Assembly (NCBI GenBank): GCA_964573695.1
Contig: CAZNKB010000003.1
Coordinates: 36,815-100,814 of the forward strand
Length of the DNA stretch: 64,000 nt
From: an uncultured Gammaproteobacteria bacterium
GTDB lineage: Bacteria; Patescibacteriota; Microgenomatia; UBA10105; UBA927
Reading direction: 5' to 3'
Of the stretch, positions 4,367-53,398 are shown piece after piece; positions within the stretch are counted from its first letter, which is position 1, and the number at the start of each line of letters is the position of its first letter. The notes beneath the pieces were generated by a model. That model saw only the letters and a program-made list of their open reading frames with translations, was not told where the DNA came from and searched no databases. A program made the translations under genes and the position numbers.

Positions 4367-4912
4367 ATGAAATCATCGAAGAATCAGGCTACCACAGGGC
4401 AAGTCACATCTGCATTTGTTGCTATTGTCGTTATTATAGGCGCAAGCGTCTTTGTCTGGTTTAGGATGCAGCGCCAGAACATACAGGAAAAAGCAGGTCT
4501 GCCCACGCAAGTAGAAGCACAGCCGACTGCTATCCCCACGCCAACGCCGACTCCCACGAAATTATTCCATGGCAAAGACACCTATATAGTCAGTCGCGGA
4601 TCCCAAGCCAAAGGGCCAAATATTTCAGAAATCACATTTGATCCGTTGGATCCGGCAGTAGGCGCACAACAAATCATTTCCGTAAAAGTCAGTCACAACA
4701 ATCCCGTGACAGACGTCACGGTCAAACTGCGCACCGACACCAAAACCACCACGCTCAAGTTAAACCGCTCAGAGGGCACGGAGTTGGGCGGCACATGGCA
4801 AACCACCTGGACTATTCCGGAAAGTTACCTGTATAACTATGCAGCAACAGTGGTTGCCAGTGCGGGCAAGGAAGAAACATCCATTCCGATCATTATCCGG
4901 GAACGAAAATGA
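4367..4912 (+). CDS. small membrane-anchored hypothetical protein (N-terminal TM helix, PTPTPTPT linker, ~110 aa extracytoplasmic domain)
   Basis: 181-aa ORF. The TM segment is VTSAFVAIVVIIGASVFVWF and is followed by a Pro-Thr linker. Its stop overlaps the start of the next gene by 4 nt. Confidence 0.5.
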   Translation: MKSSKNQATTGQVTSAFVAIVVIIGASVFVWFRMQRQNIQEKAGLPTQVEAQPTAIPTPTPTPTKLFHGKDTYIVSRGSQAKGPNISEITFDPLDPAVGAQQIISVKVSHNNPVTDVTVKLRTDTKTTTLKLNRSEGTELGGTWQTTWTIPESYLYNYAATVVASAGKEETSIPIIIRERK

Positions 4913-5706
4913 AAAAATCGACACAGTCTATAGGATTTACCGTATTATTGCTCTTGAGTTTGAGTGTTGGTGCGCGTGAAGCACAGGCAGCCTGCAATTG
5001 GAGCCCAAGCGCAGGAAGTGTTACCGCCACAACATGCGGTATCGACGGACAATCAGAAGAAGCGTATGATTATTCTTCGGGAACGGATGACTCTACGAAC
5101 GGACTCACGCTTACCATTCCCAACGGAGTCACCGTTACCCTCAACACCGGTTCTGTGGGTACACCCACGACGCTCTATGTCGGGGCTATAAATCTCACTG
5201 GAACAGGATCTCTTGTGGCTTCTGCAAACTACGTGCAGATCAAAAGCGGATTCCGATGCTATGTGACCGATGCTGACGGCGACGGATACAGTCCAACCCC
5301 CAATGTATGTTCTTCAACAAGTGGTGCTGGGAAAATCCGCAAATTCTCATCAGGGTTCCATACGGGAGTTGACTGTGGAGACGGAAATAGCGCCGCTAAT
5401 CCAGGTCAGACTGTTGCCCAGTCAACGACATTTACCAATACCGCCACCGGGTTAAGCGGTGATTGGAATTGTAATGGCGCGGAAACGAAAACATACGCTA
5501 CAGCCACATATACCTGTAGCGCGTGCACCAACGGATCAGGGTATGCGAGTTTCCAAAATACCACAAACGGATTCCAAACGTCCGTACCGGCATGCGGAGT
5601 AGCAGGCACATACTATACGGTAACCAATGCAACGTGTGTAGATCCCGCTGTTGCAAACTGTGCAGCAAGTGCTACTACCTCCAGCGTTACACAAACCTGT
5701 CTGTAA
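4909..5706 (+). CDS. secreted Cys/Gly/Thr-rich hypothetical protein with signal peptide
   Basis: N-terminus MKKSTQSIGFTVLLLLSLSVGAREAQA is a typical Sec signal peptide. The mature part has many Cys and DxDGDG-like motifs. The start overlaps the upstream stop (ATGA). Confidence 0.5.
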   Translation: MKKSTQSIGFTVLLLLSLSVGAREAQAACNWSPSAGSVTATTCGIDGQSEEAYDYSSGTDDSTNGLTLTIPNGVTVTLNTGSVGTPTTLYVGAINLTGTGSLVASANYVQIKSGFRCYVTDADGDGYSPTPNVCSSTSGAGKIRKFSSGFHTGVDCGDGNSAANPGQTVAQSTTFTNTATGLSGDWNCNGAETKTYATATYTCSACTNGSGYASFQNTTNGFQTSVPACGVAGTYYTVTNATCVDPAVANCAASATTSSVTQTCL

Positions 5707-6424
5707 ATCATTGCGAGCGAATCCCCACGGGCGTGTATAACAACTTGGCTACTGTCGTAGATTTCTCATCGGAACGATCCAGTATAATCTCATCGTGGCT
5801 CATAAACTATGCGCTTGTTTATTCATATTAAGCACCTCACCCGTAAATAGCCATACATGGGCGCACACAACCACATGTAGACCCTTTCTATGAATACTAC
5901 CAATCCATATATACACGATAAACAAATCCAGCTCATGGTCACCCCTACGCGGGTAAACGTTTACAAAGGTACATGTGCTTCCCTCCTTCTGTTATCTCAA
6001 GTTTGATGCATGTCACGGACTCTAAATAAACGAACCAAAACCGTTCGGCCATAGAACAAAAATGTGTCATTACAATATGTCTATAGGATATATATTTAGG
6101 TACATATATCCCTGTACACACCATATATCCATTTATCCCGTTCTAGCAGCAAAGTATATACTCATGAAAAATCTTATTAGAACAATCCAAACTCACTCAA
6201 TGACGATCTATTATCCAAAATAGGCCTATAATTAGAATATAAAATACCTATAGTATAGCCTCGATATGCTAATTTTGAGAGTGATAATTTGACACATTTC
6301 TCGTAAGGTTCTGTAATAGTAATAGGCCTATGATTTTTACCGAGCAAACCCATGCAAACTCTAGTCATTTGAGGCTAATAAGCAACCTTCTTTCGCATAG
6401 CTTCCCATTCACATACACACCGTC

Positions 6425-11263: not shown

Positions 11264-11265
11264 CT

Positions 11266-14200
11266 ATGATAAAACGACGCAGTACAAAGATATGGAAAAA
11301 ATCGCTCGCAATCCTTCTTTGCGCGCTCATACTCGTTGTCGGCATTCGACTCATATGGTTTAGACCGGAACAAATTGAGGCCGCCTGGTACAACGATACC
11401 TGGGGATTTCGGGTAAAACTCACGATCGATCATACGAAAGTTGCTGCAGACCAGACAGATTTTCCTGTCTACGTGGATCTGTCAAAACTACCTGCAATCT
11501 TTCATGCTCATGTCAATCAGACCGATGGACGAGATATTCGCGTTACCACAGCCAATGGATCGACTGAACTACCTCGCGAAGTGGTCTTTTATGATGCAAC
11601 GTCAAACAAAGGCGAATTACATTTTAAATACACAGGAACACTTTCATCATCAACAGACACAAGCGTTTATATCTATTTTGGAAATGCAGGTGCAAGCGAC
11701 TATGCAGCTAGCGACACCTATGGGAAAAATAATGTGTGGGATAGTAGTTTTTCCGGTATACACCATCTCCAAAATAACAGCTTTGCCGATTCTACCTCAG
11801 GGGCACATAACGGCACCAACAATGGCACAACCAACACATCGGGTAAGGCAGGAGATGGACGACTCATTGATGCGAACGGTGAATATTTTTCGGTGCCACT
11901 ATCGGGATATATACATACATCAGTTGGTACGGTAGATTGGTGGTACAAAAATACTGTCTCCTCTGCAAACTTTTTAAGTTTTTGGGGCTCTAATGAGGGA
12001 GACAATCAATTTCAATTTCAACGTAGTACGCTAGACACTAGTCTAGATTTTATTGTCAATTCTAGTGGTGCAAACTGGACCTCTCTAGCAAAAAATGTTT
12101 TTGATGGTTCCTGGCATCATATAGCCGTTGTGTACGATACCACAAATAACACACAGGACTTGTATATTGATAGCGTTGCGCAAACACAAAATATAGAGAA
12201 TCACACAGATATCGATATTTCCACCTACGCCCTCCTTATAGGTGAGAATGGTGCAGGGGGAGGAAACAACGCCAGAGGGGTCATCGATGAATTTAGGGTA
12301 TCAAATAATCTTAAACGGAGCAGCACATGGATCACGACCGAATACAATAATCAAAGTAGTCCCACCACGTTTTTTACCACAGGGGCAACAGAACAGAGAA
12401 AGTCAGCAGTTCTCAATCTGGCCTTTGACGAAGGGTACGGAACAACCGTCAATGATTCTTCATCCAATGGATATACTGGCACCCTCAGTGGCGCTACAAC
12501 GCCTTCCTGGCAATCTGAAAGTCAATGTATTTCCGGCAAATGCCTCTATTATCAAGGCTCCACTGCCTATACAAGCATTGGAACATCGGTGCCAAACGTT
12601 CAGTCTGTTTCGTTTTGGGTAAAGCCGAAGACAAACGCAGAAACACTCGTGGATTTTGACGGTGGCACACATTATATTTCTGCGTCAGCTGGCACCATTA
12701 CCGCCACCGGCTTTTCATCCTCTACTATTTACGTAAATGGAAAATCAGGAAATACATTAACTGCTAACGCATGGCAGCACATAGAAGTCACGACCGCCAC
12801 AGCGTTTACCGCCTCAGCGATAACCATTGGCAAACAATCCACCAATTATCTTAATGGGTTTATTGATGAATTTACGCTGTATGATTATGCCCGATCTTCG
12901 TCTCAAGTAAAACTAGATTTTACATCCAGATCTTCTCGGTCCGGCGTGGGTGCCCGTTTCGGTCCCGATACGGGAAACACGCTTTCCAACGGACTCGTGG
13001 GGTACTGGAAAATGGATGAAGCCGCATGGGGTACGCCAAATTGCTCAACGGACGTTACCATGGATTCATCTGGCAATGGAGCAAACGGCGACGCATGTCC
13101 TACTTCAACTGGACCAGTCGGGGGAAATGTGGGCAAATTCGGAAAAGCAGTAGCCTTTGATGGAAGTGACGACTATATCCCTATCAACGGGTCTACTGTA
13201 TATGCAACAATGAATTCTCCATTTAGTGCAAGCGCATGGGTTAATTTAACTGACTTTAGCACATCAAATTATCCAGTTGTTATCGCTTTGCGAAGCGATG
13301 ATACCGACCCATGGTTTATTATTTTGTCCAATCAAACTAACTTCTTAGGAGTCAGTATTGGAAATGATAACTCATTCGCAGGGATAAAAACTGACACTCC
13401 GACGGCGAGTTTAACCGGCGCGTGGCATCATATAGCTGTTTCATATAATGGTCAAGGCTCGGGAGCCATGACCAACTTCAAAATATATCTTGATGGACAA
13501 CTACAAACAAACATCGCGTCTGGAACCTATGCGAGTCACTCACAAACCACGTCCATTGGGTATAACGGCGGAGGAAATCGTTGGTACGGATCTATCGATG
13601 AGGTACGCGTGTACAACAGAGCCCTCTCCACATCAGACGTGAATCAGTTATACAATTGGGCTCCAGGACCAATCGGATATTGGAAAATGGACGAAAACAC
13701 GGGAACAACGATTTACGACACGAGCGGAAACGGATATAACGGCACATTTCAGGATAGCCTAACAAAAGCAGATTGGAAAAATGGAAAATACGGCTCTGCC
13801 GTCTCATTTGTAGGCGCAAACAAATCTATTTTGGCTCTACATAGTACCGGATTTGATTTTGGAACATCTACAAAGTTTACCGTGGGAACATGGGTTAAAG
13901 TAACGGCCGATACCGGATCTCAACAATCATTAATTAATCCAACTGGCGTTGTATCAGCAGGCTTTGAATTATACACGGGAAGTGACGGTAAACTTCGTGC
14001 AGCTATCGGAAGCGGCACATATTGTTCCATACGGAATACTGGCGTGACCCTTGAAGACAACAATTGGCATTATGTCGAAGCAGTATTTAACAGGGGGTCC
14101 GGTTGCACAACAGCAAGCACACAAATATATATTGACGGCAAGCTAGAACCAACTTCAGTTGCGGACAGTAGCGGCGGTGCCGACGCAAACATAGACATGG

Positions 14201-16464: not shown

Positions 16465-16522
16465 CAATATGGCTAGACATCAACCCAAACATTGAGTATA
16501 GTAGTCCGATAGAAACGGGTAT

Positions 16523-17017
16523 ATGAAACACATAATGAAAATCGTCGCGATAATAATACTCCTCCTTATCAGCGTGGCAGGAGCGGGTGCATCATACTAT
16601 TGGTACAACCGATATCAAACCGTGGTGACCAACCCACAGGCAGGATCCACCGAAGAAATACAAACAATCGTCAAAAAACTCTCCGCGTTCATGGACTTAC
16701 CCAATGAAACTCCCTCTATAGTGACTGTTACAGACCGGGAAAAGCTCCAAAACCAGGAATTTTTCAAAAAAGCAGCTAACGGCGACAAAATTATTATCTA
16801 TGAAGCATCCCGACGGGTCATCCTCTACAGACCTTCAACAAACCGAGTGATTGACGTGGCTCCGCTTGTATTTAATGATGCGACACAAAATTCCCAACAG
16901 CTCATGCCGCAAACCAACCCCACTCCCCTCGTTGAGGCGGACTTACCTTCCACAGGTTCGGCTGATGGAATCACAACGCCAACTGGGGAATATAATAAAT
17001 TTATGCCTACACCTTAG
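16523..17017 (+). CDS. small membrane-anchored hypothetical protein
   Basis: 164-aa ORF with an N-terminal TM (IVAIIILLLISVAGAGASYYWY) and a hydrophilic C-terminal region. Confidence 0.45.
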   Translation: MKHIMKIVAIIILLLISVAGAGASYYWYNRYQTVVTNPQAGSTEEIQTIVKKLSAFMDLPNETPSIVTVTDREKLQNQEFFKKAANGDKIIIYEASRRVILYRPSTNRVIDVAPLVFNDATQNSQQLMPQTNPTPLVEADLPSTGSADGITTPTGEYNKFMPTP

Positions 17018-17044
17018 GAAGGTCTTTGGGTTGCGCCAAACTAG

Positions 17045-17566
17045 CTACTCCGAACACACAGCATAATCCGTGCCGGATAATCCGCTGCACTTCGTACCAC
17101 ATCGCGACCAAGACGCACCGATTTCGCTATCAGATGCGTTTTCAAGAGACGCCTTGAGGCAAAAATCATCCCCTGCGTTTACCTGATAATAAAACATACT
17201 ACTCCCTAATTCTCCGGGGAATTTGGTCATGTACACGGTGTCGCAGCCGGTCGCTCCCGCGGCAAATGCCACCGAACACGTAGCGGGGCAAAGCGTCGAC
17301 GCATTGGATCCGCACCCTGCGATGTAATTAAGTTTACCGACGCCCCCGTTTGCGGCGTCAGGATAGACCTTATAATCATTGTAATACAACTGTAAGGCTG
17401 TCTTAAGTTGATTCAATTCTCCCTTTCGTCTCGCATCACGCGCTCTGCTTCTGGCTCCCAAAAAATTTGGTAACGCCAATCCGATGATAGTGGCAATCAC
17501 CGCAATACTCACAAGCAATTCTATTAACGTAAATGCATCAATATGTTTTTTAGTATTATTTTTCAT
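17045..17566 (-). CDS. type IV pilin/pseudopilin-like protein (class III signal, N-methylation motif)
   Basis: From an internal Met the leader is MKNNTKKHIDA|FTLIELLVSIAVIATIIGLALP (prepilin cleavage / FTLIE motif), followed by ...LQLYYND... Confidence 0.65.
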   Translation of the reverse strand: MKNNTKKHIDAFTLIELLVSIAVIATIIGLALPNFLGARSRARDARRKGELNQLKTALQLYYNDYKVYPDAANGGVGKLNYIAGCGSNASTLCPATCSVAFAAGATGCDTVYMTKFPGELGSSMFYYQVNAGDDFCLKASLENASDSEIGASWSRCGTKCSGLSGTDYAVCSE

Positions 17567-17589: not shown

Positions 17590-18108
17590 TTAAGGACTCG
17601 CATCTCCGCTTGCTATACCGTAGGTACATTCAATGGTACTATCGGTGCTGCAATTGGTGCCGGTATATCCATTCTGATCCACGCCGTCACCGGCATCGTT
17701 TGTATTTTCTAATTTCGCGTATATTTTAAAATTTGTACCGCTGGTCGATACATAATAATATGTTTGCGTACTTATAGGATCCGAGGGAAGAAGCACCATG
17801 TAGAGTGTACTATACTGATCGCGAAAGGCGCCACCCCAGGAACATGCCTGCGCATCAAGCGCTCCGCATCCCATCATGACACCTGCGGAACCGACCGGGT
17901 ACTGCCCCTTGTCATTATAATAGGCCTCAAGCGCCGTCACCAGACTCCGTAAATCGTTTTTCCGCCGGTTGTCACGGCCTCTTCGCGAACTGGACGCATA
18001 TGAACCAGTCGCGATAGCGACCAAAATACTCATAATCACCATGACGATCAGGAGCTCCATAAGCGTGAAACCTGATTGCTTATTTTTTGACTGCCAAAGA
18101 CGTTTCAT
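17590..18108 (-). CDS. type IV pilin-like protein
   Basis: Leader MKRLWQSKNKQSG|FTLMELLIVMVIMSILVAIATG, followed by ...LEAYYND... Confidence 0.65.
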   Translation of the reverse strand: MKRLWQSKNKQSGFTLMELLIVMVIMSILVAIATGSYASSSRRGRDNRRKNDLRSLVTALEAYYNDKGQYPVGSAGVMMGCGALDAQACSWGGAFRDQYSTLYMVLLPSDPISTQTYYYVSTSGTNFKIYAKLENTNDAGDGVDQNGYTGTNCSTDSTIECTYGIASGDASP

Positions 18109-18125: not shown

Positions 18126-18824
18126 TCACTGTGTACACCAATTGCTCGCATCGCCGCATAATCCCAGACAATCGTTTTCTGCCCATGATCTGGGACAACC
18201 AAATGCCGCAGGATCACCGACATTATTACACGTTCCGGGGGCGACAACCTGACCGCCTGAAATAGTGCCAGGTCGACATGCATACGGGCCAGAATACGCC
18301 GGAGTCGGTGTGAGTGTCGGCGTTGGAGTAAGATCAGGGTTAAATCCCGGAGCGGTAACCGTCGTACCGGTAGCCAAGCAATAGTTCCAAAATGCACCCC
18401 AGCCGCATCCAACTTGGGCATCACAACCCAACGTCGTGATATCCGGATCCGACCAATCCTGCAACTTGGCGCAAACCCGATTTCCTATACACAAATTGGT
18501 GTCACTGTCCGGCTGGTACTTATAGGCTTCGTTTGTCGTCGGATCACACGGAATCTTATCGATATACGGAGCTAATCCCGGCCCGTTACAGTTATTAAGA
18601 ATATCCATGGCAGGATAACACCCGTTGTCGTTGTAATATTCTTCATATGCGCGGCGAATATTTGCTATGTCAGCCTTCCGCTGGGCGTCCTGCGCCCGGT
18701 AAATATTCCGTTTCCAGCTTATAAGGAGAAAAATGACAGCAAGTATCGCGATGATCACTACGACGATAAGTAATTCGGCAAGCGTCCAACCGGCTTGAGA
18801 AGATCGTTTGTTGAGAAAACCCAT
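18126..18824 (-). CDS. type IV pilin-like protein with larger Cys-containing C-terminal domain
   Basis: Leader MGFLNKRSSQAG|WTLAELLIVVVIIAILAVIFLL, followed by ...YEEYYNDNGCYP and a C-terminal part with about 10 Cys. The alternative start at 18851 gives a 21-aa leader. Confidence 0.6.
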   Translation of the reverse strand: MGFLNKRSSQAGWTLAELLIVVVIIAILAVIFLLISWKRNIYRAQDAQRKADIANIRRAYEEYYNDNGCYPAMDILNNCNGPGLAPYIDKIPCDPTTNEAYKYQPDSDTNLCIGNRVCAKLQDWSDPDITTLGCDAQVGCGWGAFWNYCLATGTTVTAPGFNPDLTPTPTLTPTPAYSGPYACRPGTISGGQVVAPGTCNNVGDPAAFGCPRSWAENDCLGLCGDASNWCTQ

Positions 18825-18897
18825 GCGGCCTCGGGCAAATAAGCGCTTCATAAGGACAATGCTTATTATAGTATGGCAAAATATTCCCCACAACACA

Positions 18898-20910
18898 ATG
18901 CGACGAAAACCTTATGCTACACTACAGTCACCTATAGCACCCATGAACTGGCTCCTTTTCACTGCAGTTATTTTCAGCTTTTTCTTTCATCAGGAAAGCG
19001 ACGCAGCGGTCTTCATATGGAGTTCTTTTCTCCTGCTTCTTATGATGATTCGGCGAATACACCACATATCCGGATCATCACCCGTTTCCATAACATGGAT
19101 ATGGGTATTTGGGGCTCTTATCCTTACTACTATCACATCGAGGAGTATCGGCGCCTCGCTCATGGCATATATCCGCTACACCCTGGGATTTCTTGTATAT
19201 ATTTATGCGTCACAGTTTGCGCCAACGCATCTGTCGCGTGTCACGAGATGGGCATACCGGTTTTTCAACGCGATCATTCTTCTGTTTCTTTTGTTCCTCG
19301 GCCTCAACGTGTCTATGCCGCAATTCAATATTCTTCCGTTGTATAACGGAATCACCGCCGTTAACGGCCACCACCCGATTGCATACCTTATCGTATTGGG
19401 ATTCCCACTCGTGTATGAAATACACCGGCGTACTCATTCCAAAAAATCCCTTATGTATGTCCTATGTGCGGTCATAGCGCTTGCGTTGAGCGCCTCGCGG
19501 GGAGCAATGCTCCTTATATCCCTTTGGTTGATCGCTGCCGCAGTATCCGATCGTGATTGGAAAAAATACACGCTGCCGGTAGGATTTTTTCTGATTCCGA
19601 TATGTGTCGCACTCTTTGGCATAAGCTGGATATCCGGGTTTTCGTATGAGCAAAAGCTCTCTCTCGCCGGCCGACACCCGGTACTATCGGCATATATCAA
19701 AGAACGTCCTCGAGATGATCTGCGCAGAGAATTTCTCTATCAGGCGATACAAGGAGTAAAGCACTCCCCGATCCTGGGGAATGGCCCGGGAACGTTCGCG
19801 CTCGTTTCCCGGGCGTTTGAACGGCGTCCCGGAGTCTATAGCGCTCACGCACATTCGTATCCGATGCAGCTTTTGTCGGATCAGGGAATCCTCGGAAGCA
19901 TTCCGGTATTTGTCCTCATGGGATTGATCTTTTTTTACTCGCTTACACGTATAAGACATCACAAGGACGCCCATATACGCGCCCTGTCATGGGGAATACT
20001 TTTGTCTCTCATCTACAGTATATTTGAAGGAAACCTAAGTAGCATTGGCATATGGATGCTCTGGTGGGCCACAGTGGGATTTATAACGACAGACAAACCA
20101 AAGGAAAATCGCATCCCGAGAATTAGTTTTGTCCGCGCACAATACATATTCCTTATTATCTTTGTACTAAGTGCCATGCTTTCAACGCTTTTTGTATATA
20201 CCGGCAACATCGGTATGGCTACCCGTGTGGCACCTTACCGCAAAGACCTGGCACTACGTCTGCTTTCGCAGCATTTATCACCGCGGGATATTTCGATTCT
20301 TCGCTTTTTTTACCAGCGCGATCCCGATGTGACATTTGCGCTTGCCACACTCGCAGTAGCACCGCTTGATAATTACTTCAAAGCGACCCGGCTCGATCCA
20401 TATAACTACCGCTACTGGCAGCAGGCCGTATGGAGTTTTTCACAGGAGAAAAATTCAGACGCCCAAATACGCATACTCTGTGATCTCATACAACTTACCC
20501 AACCTTCTCGCCCGTGCCGTATTACACAATCACAAACATTACTCCCCTATCTTACAAGTCCTGACTTCGCAATTCCGGTAAGCTACCTCCATGGCACAGA
20601 CGGGCTTGCAAAGTTCTATTATTATCTCGGACTGACGCTCTTTCGTCAGACGCATGACGCAGAAACTGCAATATATTTTTGGACTCTGGCCCGGGATAAC
20701 GGACAGAATTGGGGATATTATCATCTGGAACTCGCCAGTGCCTACTATTATTGGAAAAACGACCCTTCCGGGGCACAACGCGTATTAGACGACTGCCAAC
20801 AACAATCCCTTGCAAAGCACGGGTGCTCTGCCATGGCACAAACGCCGGATCAGTTATATGTTCCCGGCGTATATGCTAGTGACATAACACTCATCCCTGC
20901 CATACAATAA
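18898..20910 (+). CDS. O-antigen ligase (Wzy_C) family polytopic membrane protein with C-terminal TPR-like region; candidate pilin/protein O-oligosaccharyltransferase
   Basis: About 10 TM helices and the Wzy_C signature ALALSASRGAMLLISLWLI. It is divergent from the pilin trio. The start is ambiguous (18898 or 18943). Confidence 0.6.
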   Translation: MRRKPYATLQSPIAPMNWLLFTAVIFSFFFHQESDAAVFIWSSFLLLLMMIRRIHHISGSSPVSITWIWVFGALILTTITSRSIGASLMAYIRYTLGFLVYIYASQFAPTHLSRVTRWAYRFFNAIILLFLLFLGLNVSMPQFNILPLYNGITAVNGHHPIAYLIVLGFPLVYEIHRRTHSKKSLMYVLCAVIALALSASRGAMLLISLWLIAAAVSDRDWKKYTLPVGFFLIPICVALFGISWISGFSYEQKLSLAGRHPVLSAYIKERPRDDLRREFLYQAIQGVKHSPILGNGPGTFALVSRAFERRPGVYSAHAHSYPMQLLSDQGILGSIPVFVLMGLIFFYSLTRIRHHKDAHIRALSWGILLSLIYSIFEGNLSSIGIWMLWWATVGFITTDKPKENRIPRISFVRAQYIFLIIFVLSAMLSTLFVYTGNIGMATRVAPYRKDLALRLLSQHLSPRDISILRFFYQRDPDVTFALATLAVAPLDNYFKATRLDPYNYRYWQQAVWSFSQEKNSDAQIRILCDLIQLTQPSRPCRITQSQTLLPYLTSPDFAIPVSYLHGTDGLAKFYYYLGLTLFRQTHDAETAIYFWTLARDNGQNWGYYHLELASAYYYWKNDPSGAQRVLDDCQQQSLAKHGCSAMAQTPDQLYVPGVYASDITLIPAIQ

Positions 20911-20914
20911 CCAC

Positions 20915-21796
20915 ATGAAAATATCGCCCCCTACTCTCTCGATTGTTACCCTGACTCGAAACCGGGCGAATCTTCTCTCGCTTAACCTCCAATCACTTAT
21001 CGGCCAACTATCCCAAAAAGACGAAATCATCATCATCGATAACGGCTCGACGGACAATACGGCATCGATACTTCGCACCTATGCCAAAAAACTACCGCTG
21101 CGAATCTACAAAATGTCCCGCGGAAAATATCCGCACCTCTACAACGCCGGGATCAGGCACGCGACAAAAGATATTATCGTATTTCTGGACGATGACTGTG
21201 TCGCCAGCCCCAACTATATCGAACGTATACGCCGCGCGCACGCAAAACGACCAAACGCTGCCATACAAGGCATGACGCACAGCATTCCGAAGGGCAACAT
21301 TTTCGCAGAAATCATGGGCGACCATTACAAGCACTTCATTAGCACCAATATGCTGGATCGTAGTCATCTTCGAATACTGGACAACAAAAACGCTTCCATA
21401 CCCAAAAAACTCATGATCTCCGTCGATGGATTTTGCGAGGACTTGGACTGCGGATCGGAAGATATCGAATTCGGCATCCGGCTCCGCTCGGGCGGGATAA
21501 ATATATTATTCGACCCGACGATAGTCGCCTACCACCATGAACGCACCACATACACCGACTTCGTCGCACAACACCTTCGGTTTGCCAAATGTGAAGGGCA
21601 TCTCGATAGATTACTTCCGCCTCATGAACGCATGGGGCTCGTCCGGTTTCCCAAGCTGAAACGACAGATTATGAGTGCCCTGGCTCGTGAATGGTCCTAT
21701 GTGCGATCAGCCAAGATAAAAGAGGCGCTGCTGTTGCCTTTCCTGTATCTGGTACTTGCATGTATCCGTATCTACGGGTACGCCAGCGGATTATGA
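20915..21796 (+). CDS. glycosyltransferase family 2
   Basis: TLSIVTLTRNR...IIIIDNGSTDNT...IIVFLDDDCV (GT-A DxD fold). Confidence 0.7.
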   Translation: MKISPPTLSIVTLTRNRANLLSLNLQSLIGQLSQKDEIIIIDNGSTDNTASILRTYAKKLPLRIYKMSRGKYPHLYNAGIRHATKDIIVFLDDDCVASPNYIERIRRAHAKRPNAAIQGMTHSIPKGNIFAEIMGDHYKHFISTNMLDRSHLRILDNKNASIPKKLMISVDGFCEDLDCGSEDIEFGIRLRSGGINILFDPTIVAYHHERTTYTDFVAQHLRFAKCEGHLDRLLPPHERMGLVRFPKLKRQIMSALAREWSYVRSAKIKEALLLPFLYLVLACIRIYGYASGL

Positions 21797-22668
21797 AAAG
21801 AAGACCCACACTCTCTATTATTACGGTGACGAAAAATCGGGCAGCACTTCTTAATCAAGCACTTGCCTCATTGGTCGGCCAATGTAAACGCGGCGATGAA
21901 ATCATCGTTGTCGACGCTTCAACCGATGAGACACCGGACATAGTGGCTTCGTATTCCAAAAAATTACCCCTGGTCTATATCCGGTTTCTCAAATCCGGAT
22001 ATCCGACCTTCTATAACAAAGGGGCAAAACAGGCAAAAGGTGACATCCTGGTTTTTTTTGATGACGACTGCCGCGCAACGCCCCGGTTTCTCGAACGAAT
22101 CCGTCGGGCACACGAGACCCACCCTGATTCGATCATTCAGGGGTTTTCCCGAAGCGAACCCAAAGGCAATCTCTATGTCGACATCATGGGCGACCATTAT
22201 GCAAATTGGTTGGAAGCGATGTCCTTGAAAGACAACACCCTCAAAGTCTTCGACAGCAAAAATGCGTCCATTCCCCGAGCCCTTTTTTGGAAATATGGCG
22301 GCTTATCACACACTATGCAACTGGGAAGCGAGGATATCGAATTGGGACTCAGATTACGACGCCACGGCATCAATATTTATCTTGACCGATCGATCGTCGT
22401 ATCACATCGCGAACGCACGACGCTCTGGGAATTCCTTGTGCAGCATCGTCGCTTCGCCGCCAGTGAAGGCCACCTGGACCGCGTCCTTCCGCGTTCTGAA
22501 CGTCTGGGTGTCATACCGTACAAAAAACTCATGCTGCATATCCGCAGCTTTCTCCGAAGAGAACGTCACGCCATTTCCCGGGGCAACATAAAAGATGCTG
22601 TCTTTCTTCTGTTTCTTTACGCCACTCTTGCATGGATCCGGGTTTGGGGGTACGCTTGGCACCGATGA
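21793..22668 (+). CDS. glycosyltransferase family 2 (paralogue of the preceding gene)
   Basis: TLSIITVTKNR...IIVVDASTDET...ILVFFDDDCRA. The start codon overlaps the upstream stop (ATGA at 21793). Confidence 0.7.
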   Translation: MKRRPTLSIITVTKNRAALLNQALASLVGQCKRGDEIIVVDASTDETPDIVASYSKKLPLVYIRFLKSGYPTFYNKGAKQAKGDILVFFDDDCRATPRFLERIRRAHETHPDSIIQGFSRSEPKGNLYVDIMGDHYANWLEAMSLKDNTLKVFDSKNASIPRALFWKYGGLSHTMQLGSEDIELGLRLRRHGINIYLDRSIVVSHRERTTLWEFLVQHRRFAASEGHLDRVLPRSERLGVIPYKKLMLHIRSFLRRERHAISRGNIKDAVFLLFLYATLAWIRVWGYAWHR

Positions 22669-23120
22669 GACCGGTCATTGGTATTATCACATCAAAGGGA
22701 GGACATCTTTATCAGATGTACCGGCTAAAAGACTGGTGGAGCCGCTATGACCGGTTCTGGGTGACGTTTCCGGGACAGGATTCCCAGTCGCTCCTTTCCC
22801 ATGAACGCGTATATCTTGGGTATTATCCCGAAACCCGAAATCTCATCAACGCATTCCGCCACATACGATTAGCGTGGCGTATCTTATTGCGCGAACGACC
22901 GACACTACTCATCAGCTGCGGGGCGGGAATCGCTCCCCCATTTTTTCTCGTCGCTAAGTTACTCCGTATACCGACAGTCTTTATAGAAGTCTTTGACCTG
23001 GTGAAGCACCCGAGTCTCACCGGCAAACTCGTGGAGCCTTTTGTAAATTACTTCCTCATCCAGCACCCGACGCAACGCAAATTCTATAAACACGCGCTCT
23101 ATAAAGGAGCGATTTTATGA
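22665..23120 (+). CDS. Alg14-like oligosaccharide-biosynthesis protein (membrane/acceptor-binding half of a split GT28-type transferase)
   Basis: The segment IGIITSKGGHLYQMYRL resembles the GSGGHTxEM motif. Size is ~150 aa. There is an ATGA overlap with the upstream gene. Confidence 0.6.
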   Translation: MRPVIGIITSKGGHLYQMYRLKDWWSRYDRFWVTFPGQDSQSLLSHERVYLGYYPETRNLINAFRHIRLAWRILLRERPTLLISCGAGIAPPFFLVAKLLRIPTVFIEVFDLVKHPSLTGKLVEPFVNYFLIQHPTQRKFYKHALYKGAIL

Positions 23121-23608
23121 TACTGATTTCCGTAGGCTCCACGCTGTTCCCGTTTCAGCGAATGACGACGCTGGTCGAGCATCTGGCACACGTGAGACCA
23201 AGAAACGAACGCATCATCTTTCAGTACGGCCATACCCAACCGCATTTTTTGGACCGTCACGTCGAGCCATACGCGTTTATCCCGCATGCGAGACTCATGC
23301 GGTACATGGTCAACGCACGGATTATCATCTGTCATGGCGGCCCGGGCACGATTTATCAGGCGCTGTCATTCGGTAAAATTCCCTGGGTCCTGCCACGCCA
23401 AAAGCGCTTCGGGGAACATCTCAACAATCATCAGGTAGATTTTGCCAAATTCATGGCCAGACATAAACTCATTCATATTATTACCCCAAAAACATCGATA
23501 ACGCGCATATGCATGACGGACAAATCGATTCCACCCATACGCAAAACCAACCGACAGTTGTCTGTATTTCTTGACTCGTTGCTTGGGGAAAACTCTGATA
23601 AACAGTGA
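23117..23608 (+). CDS. Alg13-like / Glyco_tran_28_C catalytic subunit
   Basis: MILISVGST...ARIIICHGGPGTIYQALSFGKIPWVLPR...HQVDFAKFM. It overlaps the Alg14-like gene by ATGA, and an AAGGAG RBS sits 8 nt upstream. Confidence 0.6.
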   Translation: MILISVGSTLFPFQRMTTLVEHLAHVRPRNERIIFQYGHTQPHFLDRHVEPYAFIPHARLMRYMVNARIIICHGGPGTIYQALSFGKIPWVLPRQKRFGEHLNNHQVDFAKFMARHKLIHIITPKTSITRICMTDKSIPPIRKTNRQLSVFLDSLLGENSDKQ

Positions 23609-23641
23609 GGGCCTAACTTATACTATAATTGAAGCTATCTT

Positions 23642-24658
23642 ATGCCGGGAAAAGACACATCTTCCATGCCAACCAGCGCGTTTATCGCGGTCACCATGCT
23701 TTGTAATTCACGGTGCATTCACTGTGACATCTGGAAAAACAAAGGCCTGGATTTTTTGCCCGTCGATATCTACCGCAAACTTCCTAAGACCCTGGAAATG
23801 GTCGACCTGACCGGAGGCGAGCCGTTTCTTCGGAGTGACATGCCGGAAATTGTAGCGGCGGTTCGCCAAACTTGTCCAAAAGCAAGAATTCTCATTACGA
23901 CAAACGGATTTCTTCCCGCCAAAATAAAAAAATACATCGCCGCAATTGTAAAACATGACCCGAACATCGCCTTCCGTCTCTCGCTCGACGGCTGGGGGTC
24001 TACCCACGAAAAAGTACGTGGCATTCCCGATGCGTTTGAAAAAGTCATGGAAACGATCACGATTCTCAAATCGGCGGGAGTTAACGATATCGGCCTCACT
24101 TTTACCCTCATGAAGATAAACCAGCACGAACTGAAAACCGTTTATGATTATTGCCGGAAAGAAAAATTATCGTTTTCACTAAACGTTGTTCACGATTCAC
24201 CCATTTACTTCGGCACCGGAAAAACATCCCTGCAGCCCAAACCCAAAGAGGTAAAGAAAGACTTTGAATATCTCTTTTCTCAGCAAATGAAAAGCATCAA
24301 CCCGAAAGACTGGGGCAAAGCATGGTTCAACCGCTATTCGTATGAATACATGCTGCATCACAAACGCCCTCTCCCCTGCGGAGCAGGAGAAAACTTCTTC
24401 TATATGGATCCGTTTGCAAATGTTTTTATGTGCCAGATAAAGAATTGGCCTATTGGTAACTTACGAAAACAATCTTTTGAACAAATTTGGTATTCTAACC
24501 CAAAACAAAAATTTCTGGGTCCAGCCCACGCCTGCAACGACTGCTGGATCGTGTGTACGGCAAAAGACGCGATCAAAAAAAATAAACTCCGGGTAGCCGG
24601 CGACATTGTCGGTCTTATGTCCACCGGTAAACCATTATTTACCCCGATCAGTTCATGA
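23642..24658 (+). CDS. radical SAM enzyme with C-terminal SPASM/twitch-like Cys cluster
   Basis: CNSRCIHC (CX3CX2C) lies near the N-terminus. C-terminal Cys residues occur in CGAGENF...FMCQ...AHACNDCWIVC. Confidence 0.65.
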   Translation: MPGKDTSSMPTSAFIAVTMLCNSRCIHCDIWKNKGLDFLPVDIYRKLPKTLEMVDLTGGEPFLRSDMPEIVAAVRQTCPKARILITTNGFLPAKIKKYIAAIVKHDPNIAFRLSLDGWGSTHEKVRGIPDAFEKVMETITILKSAGVNDIGLTFTLMKINQHELKTVYDYCRKEKLSFSLNVVHDSPIYFGTGKTSLQPKPKEVKKDFEYLFSQQMKSINPKDWGKAWFNRYSYEYMLHHKRPLPCGAGENFFYMDPFANVFMCQIKNWPIGNLRKQSFEQIWYSNPKQKFLGPAHACNDCWIVCTAKDAIKKNKLRVAGDIVGLMSTGKPLFTPISS

Positions 24659-25560
24659 AAAACAATCCGCTATCCATAAGCGTCGTGATTCTCACGAATG
24701 ACCGTCCTCATCTTTTGAAAAAGGCGCTCATGTCGATCAAACGGCAGACTACCAAACCCATAGAAGTCGTGACGGTTGACGATTCTTCTGTTCTTCACAA
24801 AGAAACCGTTGCCGTGATCAAGGCCTATACCAATGCGCTTCCCATTATCAAGCGTAATACCGAGCATTCGATATCGTACGGCAGGTCTATCGGCATGAAA
24901 TCATCTCACGGAGATATTATTGTCTATCTGGACGATGATTGCGAGGCAAAACGCACGTATCTTACGAAATTCCGTAACCATTTCCACGAAGACCCGAGCC
25001 TTACGGCCGTGATCGGCCGGATCATAAACGGCCTTCCTGACAACGTGTACGCCTCCACACAGTACGCATATTATGACCGAGGACTCCGACGCTTTTTCCC
25101 GACTCTCAACCACGTAGCACCTCTTACATGGGGAAGAATTTTGGACTGTGAGGTTATGGGTATCCGAAGGGCAACACTCAAAGCATTCGGGTTTCCGGAT
25201 CGAAACAGGCTATACCGAAACGATGACGTCGAGTTGGGCCTGCGACTTACCAAAGCCGGAGAACACGTTATCTTTGACCCGTCCATACAAGCAACCGCGT
25301 ATCCGAGGACATCACTTATCCCGCTGTGGATCGCGGCATTTTGGAATGGATACTCAGACGCCTGCACCGCAGATCTTTATCACGTCAATCTTCGTGCGGC
25401 TCCGTACCCGTCATTTTTTCTAACCTGGTTTATCGGTGAAATACGGTCAAAAAAAAGTTATTCCTGGTTTAAAAAGCTTTATTACGCATTACTCTTGCTT
25501 TCCTTCCCTACCGTATCGAGAATCGGTAAGTTATGGTATCACGTACGGAAAATTTCATGA
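24655..25560 (+). CDS. glycosyltransferase family 2
   Basis: ISVVILTNDRP...VVTVDDSS...IIVYLDDDCEA. ATGA overlap with the radical SAM gene. Confidence 0.65.
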   Translation: MKNNPLSISVVILTNDRPHLLKKALMSIKRQTTKPIEVVTVDDSSVLHKETVAVIKAYTNALPIIKRNTEHSISYGRSIGMKSSHGDIIVYLDDDCEAKRTYLTKFRNHFHEDPSLTAVIGRIINGLPDNVYASTQYAYYDRGLRRFFPTLNHVAPLTWGRILDCEVMGIRRATLKAFGFPDRNRLYRNDDVELGLRLTKAGEHVIFDPSIQATAYPRTSLIPLWIAAFWNGYSDACTADLYHVNLRAAPYPSFFLTWFIGEIRSKKSYSWFKKLYYALLLLSFPTVSRIGKLWYHVRKIS

Positions 25561-26666
25561 AAATCGCAATCATAAACGACACGCTTGACGAATTCGGCGG
25601 CGCCGAACGTGTAGCGCTCACCATGCTCCGGATGTTTCCCGATGCAGATTTCTTCACGTCATTTGCGAACAAAAAGATCGTACAAAATTTCTTTACCAGA
25701 TTAACGCCGCACATCCACACCCCATGGCAAATACTCTCATTTGTCGCCACACATCGTTCTCTTATGCAGCTGATCTCACCGTTTCTGTGGGGACACTGGG
25801 ACCTATCCCGATATGATTTGGTACTGTCAAACCCAAGCAACCTCATGTGTAATATGGTCTCAGTCAAACGCGGAGCACATATCCAATATATTCACACGAT
25901 ACCCAAAAACCTTTTTGGACTACTCCCGAAAACCCCGCTGCAACGACTTATCGGGTACGACGCATCGATCGCACCAAAATATCGCATGGCGATTTCTAAC
26001 ACGCCACACATTCTGACCAGTTCACGGCATATGCAGCAGACGATCAATCGTCTTTTCGGCATCACGGCTCACGTTTTACCCCCTCCGGTACATATTCCAA
26101 TCAATAAACCGATACGGAAAAAGCCGGAATTTTATCTGTGTGTATCCCGGCTTGACCGGGATAAGCATTTGGAGCTTGCGATACTGGCCTGCACGAAACT
26201 CGGGGTACCGCTACGCATCGTTGGGGTTACCAATGAACCGAGCTATGAAACGTATCTGCATAGCATTGCCGGCCCAACAATACAATTCATGGGTTACCGT
26301 TCCGACGAGGAAGTAAACTCGCTATATAAATCATCGTACGCGTTCCTGTTTCCCTCAAAACAAGAGGACTTCGGCATTGCTCCGCTCGAGGCGTTAGCAC
26401 ATGGTGTGCCGGTTATCGCCTTCTATGGTGGCGGACCCAAAGAAACGCTTAGAGAAGGAATAACCGGCACGTTTTTTCACAATCACACGGATACGAGTCT
26501 TTCCGAAGCGATCCGCCGCATAGAACGGAGGACATTTGATCCTGTTCTGCTTTATACGCATGCCAAAAAATATAGCGAGGCGGTATTCCAGAAACGGCTT
26601 CTTACCTATATACGCGAGGTCATGAGGCAAAAATCCGCTATTTCCCGACCGAGACAATCTCGGTGA
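25557..26666 (+). CDS. glycosyltransferase family 4 (GT-B, group 1)
   Basis: MKIAIINDTLDEFGGAERV...FLFPSKQEDFGIAPLEALAHGVPVIAF (EX7E motif). ATGA overlap with the upstream GT2. Confidence 0.7.
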   Translation: MKIAIINDTLDEFGGAERVALTMLRMFPDADFFTSFANKKIVQNFFTRLTPHIHTPWQILSFVATHRSLMQLISPFLWGHWDLSRYDLVLSNPSNLMCNMVSVKRGAHIQYIHTIPKNLFGLLPKTPLQRLIGYDASIAPKYRMAISNTPHILTSSRHMQQTINRLFGITAHVLPPPVHIPINKPIRKKPEFYLCVSRLDRDKHLELAILACTKLGVPLRIVGVTNEPSYETYLHSIAGPTIQFMGYRSDEEVNSLYKSSYAFLFPSKQEDFGIAPLEALAHGVPVIAFYGGGPKETLREGITGTFFHNHTDTSLSEAIRRIERRTFDPVLLYTHAKKYSEAVFQKRLLTYIREVMRQKSAISRPRQSR

Positions 26667-27507
26667 CACGGGGCTCGATATCTATCTTACCCAGGAATAA
26701 CGGAATGGGAAGATTTACTTTTATGGGAATTGAGTCGAGATAATACATCTGATTATCCACGATTTGCGTTGCTATCCGAAGCGTCAAAAATACATCCACC
26801 TTTCTCGGATGCTGTCGTTCATAAATATTGCCGTACTGATCAACAGTTGTAACGGATGCCGGACGTACCGTCTTTTCAAGCACCTCGGCAAGCAACACTC
26901 CGTCCGAATCCATAGCTTTGTCCCCTACGGAAATCGCATCTGCACTATAGCGGTCGACCCCGGTCGTCTCGTTAAACGGCTCATACAAAAATGGCCCTTC
27001 TAGTTTTAATTGCGCTTTTAGGGTTACGTATGTCGGGGGCTTCATATCCTGTGAGGGAACCATGACCAAAATTCCGTTTATGACCGTCGATTGGATCGTC
27101 AAACGCAACCAATCGCTCGATTGCAATACCATGCCTTCATATCGATATTGGTTTTTGCGTTTATTGTAGGAAGTGCGCAGGCGAAGCGTCACGAAAACGG
27201 TTTTTTTGTTCACATACGCAGACTCCACCCGTGGCTGATCAAACGAGGTTACTTTCACAACCTCTGCAGTCGTTCGTCCAAAGAGATCCGTTTCCTTCAT
27301 GCCCACCTTCACGGTGTTTGCACGTACGCCGCGCGGCGAACCGCCGTCCAGCCAAATCAGGTCTTTGTCTGCCAGTCGAAGGGTCACCAATACGTCAGTA
27401 GATTTGGGAGAAATAAAAATATAAATAAGGGCCGCGACGACCAACAACACTGAGATACCGAAGTACTCTATAAATCCGACTTTCCGCAACAAGGAACCGA
27501 TCTTCAT
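26638..27507 (-). CDS. hypothetical membrane-anchored protein (N-terminal TM, beta-rich extracytoplasmic domain)
   Basis: From an internal Met (MKIGSLLRKVGFIEYFGISVLLVVAALIYIF). Its start overlaps the stop of the upstream Wzy-like gene by 4 nt. Confidence 0.45.
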   Translation of the reverse strand: MKIGSLLRKVGFIEYFGISVLLVVAALIYIFISPKSTDVLVTLRLADKDLIWLDGGSPRGVRANTVKVGMKETDLFGRTTAEVVKVTSFDQPRVESAYVNKKTVFVTLRLRTSYNKRKNQYRYEGMVLQSSDWLRLTIQSTVINGILVMVPSQDMKPPTYVTLKAQLKLEGPFLYEPFNETTGVDRYSADAISVGDKAMDSDGVLLAEVLEKTVRPASVTTVDQYGNIYERQHPRKVDVFLTLRIATQIVDNQMYYLDSIPIKVNLPIPLFLGKIDIEPRVTEIVSVGK

Positions 27508-28985
27508 ACAGTGTCCGACAAGTATATCATAGTAAGTGACGTTAATAACGAGATATCGGGAAGAATCGGCTGCATAAATCCGTTCACAACCGAAGCGCAA
27601 TATGCGCATAGCAACGATACGCCAAATATTCTGGAAATCCGCGTTTTAGCGAGGCGAACGCGTATGATCACCCACGTAAATAGCGAAACCACGAGAAGGT
27701 AATACGGAAGTGCGCCGACGATACCCACTTCGATAAGTAACCGCAAAAATCCGTTGTGCACGGGCTCAGGGAAATAAAGCACCACGGATCGATTCGGCGC
27801 ATCAATATTCCAACTTCCATACCACTCGGAACGCAAATATTGTATATACACATCCATCTCAAGGCCTACACCGAAGTACAAATTCGGAGTGATGTCTTTG
27901 GTATATTCCTTAAGAAGCATCATGCGGGTTTCTAAACTCCCGTACTTCCCGCCGGAATACAACGTACTGATCAAACGCGGCAACATAATGACGCCCAGTC
28001 CTAAAATCGCCAGTGAGATCACGACGCGTTGTGTTTTTTTCAACGTGACGGCAAGAGATAATGGAGTATTCCATACAAATTTCATGACGGCATAAAACAC
28101 GGCAAACGCGACGGCAGCGCTTAACCATGCAGACCTGCTCATCGTCAATACCAATACGACGATACCGGCAAAAAAACTTGTAAACAGCAACACATCTTTC
28201 TTGCCAAATCGGTAAAACGCGGCGGGTAACGCGATAAACAGAGGGATAAGCAAGCCATGCGCGAGCGCGTTTGCATGCATATACGTTCCGGCATATCGGA
28301 GTATCCCACCGGCATCACGAGACAGATCGACCACAACGTAATTGACCAACGGTTCAATCACAAGACCTATGGATCCTCCCCGGAACACCTGACCCAATAC
28401 AATACCTAATTCAAAAAATAAACCACCACCGAGTATCACGAGCGCTGATACCATAGAAAACGAAGAAAACGTAGAAAAAAAATAATAAAGTATGAGCGGC
28501 CGTATCGTAAAAAGACTATGTAAAATAGATATGTCTGGTCTGACCGATCCAGCTAACGTTGAGAGAATCGTCGCCGCTGGATATGCAAATAGCAATAACT
28601 CTATGATTCGGTTTCGACGAACGGGCGTTTTACCCCTCACAGATTCCGCCACCAAAATAACCGCCATAAGAGCCACCACCATATCCCCAATCGACACGAT
28701 AACGTCGGCAGAAATGCCAAACGTTCGCCCGGTGATTCCGAGTTGCTGTGCAGAGATAAGATCGATGACAAACAGCTTACCGACGATAAGTGGCACGAGG
28801 GTAAGATATAGCGCCATGAATGCATGACGGAAATTATGAAACAGTCGCCAAAGTACAAAAAAATACAGACTGCAGAGAATAAACAGGACTATTTTGTGGG
28901 GAACCATGAGCGTCGCCCCATAAAATATAAGCGTTGAAAAAAGAAGTGTCCGATGCGGGAGTTTCATTTCAACCGATTCTATCAT
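27504..28985 (-). CDS. O-antigen ligase/polymerase-like (Wzy_C family) polytopic membrane protein
   Basis: Multi-TM protein with the VLVLTMSRSAWLSAAVAF signature. Start uncertain (28985, 28967 or 29171). Confidence 0.55.
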   Translation of the reverse strand: MIESVEMKLPHRTLLFSTLIFYGATLMVPHKIVLFILCSLYFFVLWRLFHNFRHAFMALYLTLVPLIVGKLFVIDLISAQQLGITGRTFGISADVIVSIGDMVVALMAVILVAESVRGKTPVRRNRIIELLLFAYPAATILSTLAGSVRPDISILHSLFTIRPLILYYFFSTFSSFSMVSALVILGGGLFFELGIVLGQVFRGGSIGLVIEPLVNYVVVDLSRDAGGILRYAGTYMHANALAHGLLIPLFIALPAAFYRFGKKDVLLFTSFFAGIVVLVLTMSRSAWLSAAVAFAVFYAVMKFVWNTPLSLAVTLKKTQRVVISLAILGLGVIMLPRLISTLYSGGKYGSLETRMMLLKEYTKDITPNLYFGVGLEMDVYIQYLRSEWYGSWNIDAPNRSVVLYFPEPVHNGFLRLLIEVGIVGALPYYLLVVSLFTWVIIRVRLAKTRISRIFGVSLLCAYCASVVNGFMQPILPDISLLTSLTMIYLSDTV

Positions 28986-40117: not shown

Positions 40118-40163
40118 TGCCGCTCATCATATCAGGCGCAAATGTAAAGATGCAACACACGCA

Positions 40164-41693: not shown

Positions 41694-41718
41694 GGGATAA
41701 TGACACCATTGTGACACA

Positions 41719-45025: not shown

Positions 45026-45035
45026 CTGTCAGATT

Positions 45036-47824: not shown

Positions 47825-47893
47825 CGATACATGGCAAGAGTGGCGCTTGCCATTTTTCTCTCGCAAAGCGTATTATGTGGAAAAGCAATATCT

Positions 47894-48307: not shown

Positions 48308-48330
48308 TAACCTAAATCCCATGTAGCTTC

Positions 48331-53344: not shown

Positions 53345-53361
53345 TCTAACCTAAACCCGGG

Positions 53362-53391: not shown

Positions 53392-53398
53392 TGATCTC

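Follow-up and report, generated by a model that had tools for sequence, protein, structure and literature searches.

A 64-kb stretch of contig CAZNKB010000003.1 (here called the window) encodes a large membrane protein of the Pfam family Wzy_C with a C-terminal tail resembling tetratricopeptide repeats (TPRs). An earlier note on this DNA had proposed this Wzy_C-TPR protein as a PglL/PilO-like O-oligosaccharyltransferase (O-OTase) of three neighbouring pilins. Our analysis indicates that it is most likely the transferase of a surface-glycan module that occurs throughout the Candidate Phyla Radiation (CPR); we do not think that it is a dedicated pilin enzyme. Open reading frame (ORF) analysis of the window showed a frame on the + strand that is open from a TTG at 18808 to the stop at 20910. 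The start proposed in the earlier note, the ATG at 18898, yields 670 aa and the ATG at 18943 yields 655 aa; a homolog search recovered a public protein (P0001), 100% identical, that begins at the 18943 start, and looking up its exact sequence gave no contig. Residue numbers are counted from ATG 18943 (the 655-aa form) unless the 670-aa form is named. Wzy_C is the sole Pfam domain in the protein (E = 2.9e-13; 50.3 bits against a cutoff of 31.7; residues 187-335 of the 670-aa form), and NCBIfam has no family for it or for a shorter Wzy_C protein of the window. The 'SASRGAML' string, named as a signature in the earlier note, was found in the sequence. The gene is under selection: orthologs at 31-74% identity retain its full length and the same motifs.

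An AlphaFold2 (AF2) model built on ten relatives (pLDDT 79.6) contains 13 membrane helices. The top fold match in the PDB was WaaL (7tpg; Foldseek E = 2e-4, TM-score 0.50 on the target), and FtsW and RodA came next. An identity as a SEDS protein, the group of FtsW and RodA, was rejected since the sequence matches Wzy_C. Searching PDB sequences with the single protein gave no match and the family profile matched TPR proteins only; WaaL chains were matched at the sequence level by neither query. Because these searches gave TPR proteins only, the residues are not mappable onto WaaL by alignment. When the sequence is set against the modelled helices, the K/R-rich loops (38-48, 165-172, 203-210, 335-345 and 382-396) all lie on one side, and the K/R-rich segment KPKENRIPRISFVR stands before helix 13. 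The N terminus is probably inside and the C terminus outside, because these loops fit the positive-inside rule and helix 13 crosses the membrane in the model.

Conservation was determined in 138 full-length, diverse family members with a median identity of 23.5% to the target. Residues G142-H143, R186, R261, P276, G279, G281, G283, F285, S289, H304, G315 and G318 are conserved in 97-100% of these proteins; R186 is found in 97%, and the set R186, R261 and H304, spaced by 75 and 43 residues, in 97-99%. Among orthologs, the predicted outside loop (residues 232-305) is conserved best, the tail also ranks high and the membrane helices rank lowest. Two arginines and a histidine are essential in E. 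coli WaaL (R215, R288 and H338) and in PglL (R224, R298 and H349) (PMC3643930), and by their spacing R186, R261 and H304 of the target resemble this Arg/Arg/His set. Moreover, a P-x2-G-x-G sequence follows the second arginine (P276, G279 and G281) with the spacing seen in PglL (P313, G316 and G318; PMC3643930).

The tail is 235 residues long and carries a WGYYHLELAS motif. The family profile matched consensus-TPR proteins at E = 3.8e-4, and Foldseek matched the tail fold to CTPR, OGT and APC TPR domains, in agreement with the TPR-like tail that the earlier note had described. TPR domains usually bind proteins. C618 and C628 are invariant (138/138 members), which fits a disulfide bond and hence points to an outside location of the tail. 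A C-terminal TPR motif has been reported for PglL and for WsfB, a predicted S-layer O-OTase (PMC2943079), and the C-terminal domain of PglL is predicted to face the periplasm (PMC12645811).

In an exhaustive profile search there were 8869 matches at E<=1e-3; with the threshold at E<=1e-30, the number was 421 cluster representatives. Of the 150 top family matches, almost all are full length (~640-700 aa). This search overturned the impression of a rare family given by a word-index homolog search, which had found 10-22 relatives only. Pfam Wzy_C also matches 10/10 close members and 28/28 diverse members (alignment A6), and the sources annotate relatives simply as 'O-antigen ligase'. Two distant Wzy_C+TPR proteins (P0013 and P0014) lie in neighbourhoods unrelated to that of the target. 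Taken together, the protein belongs to a large, distinct and uncharacterised Wzy_C subfamily. The kind of enzyme itself is already known; relative to described O-OTases, the new features are helix 13 with the Cys-paired TPR-like tail, the lack of PglL markers, the CPR host and the recurring module that includes a DUF4330-like protein and another Wzy_C.

The gene is divergent from three pilin genes and is the first gene of a glycan-assembly operon, with a GT2 glycosyltransferase (GT) gene beginning 5 bp past its stop (Table 1); the ORF, the Wzy_C membership, the divergent trio and the operon were thus all as the earlier note had reported. Scanning the divergent region for promoters and terminators gave no more hits than expected from shuffled sequence. 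Pilin 3, whose orthologs are 72-95% identical, consists of a globular domain, a Thr/Pro linker and a Cys-rich C-terminal domain. The linker also occurs in a displaced copy of pilin 3 at the related locus L008 (EPTPTPTPTP), and it is a plausible candidate O-glycosylation site. The linker peptide PDLTPTPTLTPTPAY is a candidate acceptor sequence, as are pilin 3 itself and the surface protein p181. p181 has a membrane anchor, a PTPTPTPT linker and a beta domain, and its companion p265 has a signal peptide and is rich in Cys, Ser and Thr. In Neisseria, the PglL substrates besides PilE carry their glycans in flexible linker extensions comparable to these Thr/Pro linkers. The earlier note had suggested looking for Ser/Thr-rich C-terminal tails or PilO sequons in the pilins; these end in ...CSE, ...ASP and ...CTQ, so that the last residues are E, P and Q, and none is Ser or Thr in any ortholog.

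Some 11.3 kb separate p265 from pilin 1 in the window only (5707-17044), against ~170-230 bp in eight syntenic loci (L001-L007 and L038). In it, a 1612-aa ORF (6425-11263) combines two MerR/HTH_17 motifs and a membrane segment with ~600 aa of collagen-type G-x-y repeats, and an H-type lectin forms its C-terminal part; a LamG-rich ORF of 1739 aa (11245-16464) and an ORF of 164 aa are present as well. The stretch appears to be an insertion specific to this lineage that encodes giant surface proteins.

The genes of the downstream operon travel with the family in L016-L019, L023, L024, L028, L030-L032, L039 and L040. The radical SAM/SPASM gene is the best conserved of them, at 78-94% identity where the Wzy_C-TPR protein is at 31-74%. 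It accompanies the family in the distant loci L023, L030 and L040 as well, and against NCBIfam it scored below every cutoff, the best being a PTO1314-type model (67 bits against a cutoff of 306). Beyond the operon, on the - strand, lie a DUF4330-like protein and the second Wzy_C protein that the earlier note had placed at 27504-28985. The AF2 model of the DUF4330-like protein (pLDDT 72) has an N-terminal transmembrane helix and several small beta-barrel domains and gave no significant match in the PDB; a role as a Wzz-type co-polymerase was considered and dropped, as the modelled helix and beta-barrels are not Wzz-like. The short Wzy_C protein has only local similarity to the target, with the aligned His kept. 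The two are always paired, and they co-occur in L001-L008, L016/17, L026, L028, L038 and L039.

Table 1. Features of the Wzy_C-TPR protein and its neighbourhood in the window (residues in 655-aa numbering; sidedness predicted).
Feature	Position	Strand	Basis or details
Wzy_C-TPR protein	18898..20910 (alternative start 18943)	+	ORF, Pfam Wzy_C, P0001, AF2 model, WaaL 7tpg fold match
Pfam Wzy_C match, residues 172-320	19456..19902	+	R186 in SASRGA string inside
Polytopic membrane domain, residues 1-420, 13 modelled helices	18943..20202	+	AF2 model
N141-G-H-H-P145 motif, predicted outside loop between helices 5 and 6	19363..19377	+	G142 97%, H143 99% (138 members)
Large predicted outside loop, residues 232-305	19636..19857	+	Carries R261, P276, G279, G281, G283, F285, S289, H304
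Helix 13, residues 391-419, predicted to take tail outside	20113..20199	+	AF2 helix
All-helical TPR-like tail, residues 421-655	20203..20907	+	Family profile, Foldseek, alignment of 138 members
Pilin 1, 173 aa, prepilin site A/FTLIELL, invariant C-terminus ...AVCSE	17045..17566	-	N_methyl 1.3e-5, GspG-like
Pilin 2, 172 aa, prepilin site G/FTLMELL, GspG-like fold	17590..18108	-	N_methyl 3e-10, T2SSG 1e-4, GspG 1.6e-14
Pilin 3, 241 aa, prepilin site G/WTLAELL	18126..18851	-	N_methyl 1.7e-4, GspG-like
Thr/Pro-rich linker of pilin 3, PDLTPTPTLTPTP	18300..18338	-	Kept in orthologs
Divergent intergenic region pilin 3/target, short, AT-rich	18852..18897, or to 18942 if start 18943		46-91 bp
p181 and p265 surface proteins	4367..5706	+	Accompany block throughout syntenic clade
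Glycan-assembly operon	20915..26666	+	Pfam, NCBIfam
GT2	20915..21796	+	Pfam
GT2	21793..22668	+	Pfam
PssD/Alg14	22665..23120	+	NCBIfam PssD 110.1 bits vs cutoff 110
PssE/Alg13	23117..23608	+	NCBIfam PssE 7e-20
Radical SAM/SPASM	23642..24658	+	Pfam
GT2	24655..25560	+	Pfam
GT4	25533..26666	+	Pfam
DUF4330-like bitopic protein, 289 aa	26638..27507	-	Weak Pfam DUF4330 match
Short Wzy_C, 493 aa, no tail	27504..28985	-	Pfam Wzy_C 3.9e-13

The wider family was sampled by a metagenome scan and three contig look-ups, and the neighbourhoods were annotated with ORF calls, phmmer and a regex script; ~30 related loci were compared in all. L001-L007 and L038 share with the window a block composed of a giant LamG protein, p181, p265, the three pilins (-), the Wzy_C-TPR gene (+), the GT operon, the DUF4330-like gene (-) and the short Wzy_C gene (-). 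Within this syntenic clade, identity to the window is 31-74% for the Wzy_C-TPR protein, 34-90% for the short Wzy_C, 69-95% for the pilins, 47-94% for the GTs and 78-94% for the radical SAM protein. At L008 the pilin adjacency is broken: p183 and p268 immediately precede the Wzy_C-TPR gene, with an overlap, and only a pilin-3-like gene is found, 7 kb away, with the enzyme, the p181/p265 equivalents and the operon kept. The L008 contig (CAZEVT010000001.1, 433 kb) is labelled uncultured Gammaproteobacteria, and this label is probably wrong because the contig carries the same CPR-type block.

Over the whole sample, the constant partners of the family are GT2, GT4, PssD/PssE, the radical-SAM protein and the pair of DUF4330-like protein and short Wzy_C. 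dnaA adjoins the family gene in L012, L016/17, L018, L025, L026, L039 and L040, together with dnaN except in L039; in these lineages the gene and its glycan module are probably close to the replication origin. Pilus genes recur in another arrangement in L027/L028, where PilX_N (8e-5), PilM (6e-61), a PilN-sized gene and PilO (3e-4), at 4619-7919 in L028, lie head-to-head with a full-length family member. Pilus genes thus adjoin the family in two different arrangements among ~7 context types, which is suggestive, although an excess over chance cannot be shown. In L032 (6612-9368), an initiating phosphoglycosyltransferase of the Bac_transf type (4.2e-58) and a family member are fused in a single protein of 918 aa, uniting the first and a late step of the undecaprenyl-pyrophosphate (Und-PP) pathway in one polypeptide; this fusion ties the family to that pathway. 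In L034 (6840-10605; L035 is identical), genes for two Wzy_C proteins of 483 aa and 613 aa come after a prepilin gene (N_methyl 2.6e-10) and share its orientation, a tfpO-like layout. These proteins have weak TPR matches and are related to the studied family only weakly.

The host bears directly on the choice of acceptor. Two of the syntenic loci, L006 and L007, which come from a collection of species-representative genomes, are labelled Candidatus Gottesmanbacteria, a CPR lineage. The earlier note had named lipopolysaccharide (LPS) core genes as what would speak for a WaaL role; among the scanned ORFs of the 64-kb window, we found no Lpx, Kds, heptosyltransferase, LPS-core or lipid-A families. 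An analysis of CPR genomes likewise reported no lipid A/LPS genes and described the CPR envelope as still unclear (PMC5220378). A classical lipid-A-core ligase is therefore unlikely in this host, as judged from the window and its relatives. CPR bacteria attach to their hosts via type IV pili and large surface proteins (PMC5220378, PMC12206443).

The most likely single reading, which we propose tentatively and by architecture and analogy, is that the protein is a WsfB/PglL-like O-OTase for surface proteins. Of the role claimed in the earlier note, the O-OTase activity is what stands in this qualified form, and the pilin-dedicated PglL/PilO type does not. The reading draws on the Wzy_C domain, the top fold match to WaaL and the conservation of R186, R261 and H304 (at least 97%); on the presence in the operon of PssD/PssE, which act on polyprenyl-PP-linked sugars; and on the L032 fusion. 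It draws further on type IV pilus genes being divergent neighbours in two arrangements (the trio, and pilX-pilM-pilN-pilO in L027/L028) and on the weakly related Wzy_C+TPR genes that follow a pilin gene in L034/L035. Protein acceptors are favoured because TPR tails occur in WsfB and PglL, because the host probably has no LPS and so lacks the classical WaaL acceptor, because the second, tail-less Wzy_C could carry out polymerisation, and because exported proteins with conserved Thr/Pro linkers adjoin the gene. By its published description, WsfB of Paenibacillus alvei is the closest architectural precedent: there too a C-terminal TPR comes after Wzy_C, the organism is a monoderm without LPS, and the gene stands among glycan-assembly genes (PMC2943079). 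WsfB, however, serves an ABC-transporter-type pathway and an S-layer protein, whereas at the target locus there is another Wzy_C together with a DUF4330-like partner, and none of the genes was identified as coding for an S-layer. The presence of a Wzy protein besides WsfB in P. alvei is not supported by the review and was dropped as an argument.

In the mechanism that we propose, the protein would be a WaaL-fold membrane glycosyltransferase with its catalytic loop and a disulfide-bonded TPR-like tail outside the single CPR membrane. The operon, whose gene families are observed, would build an oligosaccharide on Und-PP, and the lipid-linked glycan would be flipped outward. Arg186, Arg261 and His304 would hold the pyrophosphate, as we infer from WaaL and PglL, and exported surface proteins, recruited by the TPR tail, would receive the glycan en bloc on Ser/Thr. 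In this lineage, the Thr/Pro linkers found in pilin 3 and in p181 are candidate acceptors, and the giant LamG proteins may be others.

Several observations weigh against this reading. PglL and PglS are recognised by PglL_A together with Wzy_C_2 (PMC3643930; PMC12645811). PglL_A (PF15864) gave no match at E<=10 in the target or nine relatives and matched 0/28 diverse members at E<=0.01; Wzy_C_2 (PF11846) is absent from the target at E<=10, matched 0/28 diverse members at E<=0.01 and matched one member of alignment A1 at 1.3e-3. PglL (general, Neisseria) and PglS (ComP-specific, Acinetobacter) share with the target a Wzy_C core, similarly spaced Arg/Arg/His, P-x2-G-x-G, an outward C-terminal domain, a size of ~550-670 aa and frequent pilin linkage, but the target differs in the missing PglL_A/Wzy_C_2, the CPR monoderm host and the TPR-like, Cys-paired tail. 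With the features of TfpO/TfpM (size, orientation and pilin ends) failing as well, the PglL/PilO-like membership claimed earlier does not hold: as far as the sequence tells, the protein is a member of none of the four named O-OTase families, and it could still have O-OTase activity. In this superfamily, OTases, ligases and polymerases are inseparable by sequence and are assigned by functional assay (PMC9829042). Moreover, neither a flippase nor an initiating transferase was found in the window.

Genomic context adds further points on the same side. Pilin adjacency is confined to one syntenic clade (the window, L001-L007 and L038), and because one ancestral 20-kb block is common to all nine loci, together they amount to one observation. 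The surroundings of the family gene contain neither pilin nor pilus genes in L012, L013, L016/17, L018, L019, L025, L026, L032, L039 or L040; since most family lineages have none nearby, the adjacency could be inherited synteny. Any glycoprotein product is a prediction, and the family-wide tail motifs fit a conserved partner or acceptor better than diverse protein substrates. Finally, PMT_2 and YfhO-type GT-C enzymes of the window could glycosylate the Thr/Pro linkers instead.

The latter enzymes belong to a dense run of polytopic membrane proteins of ~530-670 aa at 39398-57854. Some of these match PMT_2, PTPS_related or YfhO, and four have no Pfam match, three of them paralogous (u531, u536 and u552). 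Alongside lies a small GT2 resembling polyprenyl-phosphate sugar synthases, and the run probably represents a second, lipid-P-sugar-dependent glycosylation route. Over the window as a whole (1-64000), almost all 2-kb bins have a GC skew below zero, mostly from -0.04 to -0.16 and with a cumulative value of -2.9, and most genes lie on the + strand.

Four alternatives were weighed against the O-OTase reading. The one that survives best, which we nevertheless consider unlikely, is that the protein is a Wzy-type polymerase of the operon's repeat unit, with the TPR tail as a scaffold or chain-length device and the short Wzy_C and DUF4330-like protein as a ligase or second polymerase. Wzy polymerases are also found in Pfam Wzy_C (PMC4594306), and Wzy/TuaE-type polymerases share with the target both the superfamily and the kind of operon, in which GT2/GT4 and PssD/PssE-like enzymes are encoded. 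What accompanies the family from locus to locus is the set of genes for glycan assembly, and no protein substrate does so; the L032 fusion fits any Und-PP-dependent step. The membrane helices diverge quickly, a typical trait of glycan-specific enzymes, but the operon genes are well conserved (GTs 47-94%, radical SAM 78-94%), so that a conserved glycan leaves this divergence unexplained. TPR tails are no known feature of polymerases, and to our knowledge no Wzy with such a tail has been characterised. A Wzy polymerase would have a Wzz/PCP partner, whereas no Wzz or GNVR Pfam match occurs in the window; the DUF4330-like protein is not Wzz-like, so this partner assigns neither Wzy_C as a polymerase.

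Less probable still is a ligase that joins the finished glycan to something other than protein in the CPR envelope, for instance a membrane glycolipid anchor or a wall polymer, which would make the protein a monoderm counterpart of WaaL. WaaL is the best structural match and has the same kind of conserved Arg/His outside loop; it differs in having 12 helices and no tail and in using a lipid A-core acceptor, whereas the target has 13 helices and a tail and the window no LPS pathway. The breadth of the family (its 421 representatives) and its frequent position by dnaA/dnaN are what one would see for a housekeeping envelope function, the conserved tail motifs suggest one conserved acceptor or partner, and weak TuaH/TuaG/TuaC-like matches in the window recall teichuronic-acid clusters. 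However, wall attachment in monoderms is normally performed by LCP enzymes, a TPR tail would usually point to a protein partner, and no genes for acceptor synthesis were recognised.

A dedicated pilin O-OTase of the PglS/TfpO/PilO type, with the three adjacent pilins as substrates, is a sub-case of the O-OTase reading that we regard as doubtful. Known dedicated OTases usually lie beside their pilin (PMC3643930, PMC12645811), and the divergent trio is kept in nine loci where the enzyme is only 31-74% identical; yet these loci form the single block described above. The earlier note was right that pilins stand beside the enzyme in the window, but this does not extend to the family: L008 has lost the adjacency and keeps the enzyme, p181/p265 and the operon, and at least nine other contexts contain no pilin. 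TfpO/TfpM enzymes have 420-470 aa, their genes follow the pilin gene with the same orientation, and the residue that they modify is a Ser/Thr at the C terminus of the pilin (PMC9829042). TfpO/PilO and TfpM resemble the target as Wzy_C enzymes adjoining a type IV pilin, whereas the target has 655-670 aa with its 235-aa tail, pilins on the opposite strand, and pilin ends other than Ser/Thr. Dedicated pilin specificity is therefore only weakly supported.

It is improbable that the trio is a pseudopilus exporting the cluster's polysaccharide, machinery and not substrates, as proposed for hpsB-D beside hpsE-G in Nostoc (PMC6495340): all three pilins are GspG-like, their conservation far exceeds that of the Wzy_C proteins, and a weak HpsC match (4.5e-3) was seen for pilin 2, but the similarity to Hps is weak, genes for a pilus motor or platform are absent from the window, pilins are missing from most family loci, and the proposal accounts for the neighbourhood only and not for the function of the enzyme.

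Beyond the O-OTase reading of the single protein, we put forward, with considerable reserve, a broader picture: the Wzy_C-TPR protein, short Wzy_C, DUF4330-like protein, PssD/PssE and radical-SAM protein may form a conserved surface-glycosylation system of Patescibacteria, often located beside oriC. The Wzy_C-TPR protein would be its general protein O-OTase, the first to be assigned in the CPR, and in Gottesmanbacteria the module would lie beside pilins and giant LamG adhesins so that host-contact pili and adhesins carry the glycan. Pilin O-glycosylation in the CPR has so far been a software prediction with no enzyme named (PMC12206443), and our literature search found no publication linking it to an O-antigen ligase.

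The comparative data weaken the specific pilin story, and the function given here is a prediction. If the protein is a polymerase or wall ligase instead, it would be an ordinary envelope-glycan gene; if it is an O-OTase with a new tail domain, it may be of use in glycoengineering. A sizeable, unnamed Wzy_C subfamily and the gene module that recurs with it thus provide a concrete, clonable candidate enzyme for the surface glycans of the CPR.

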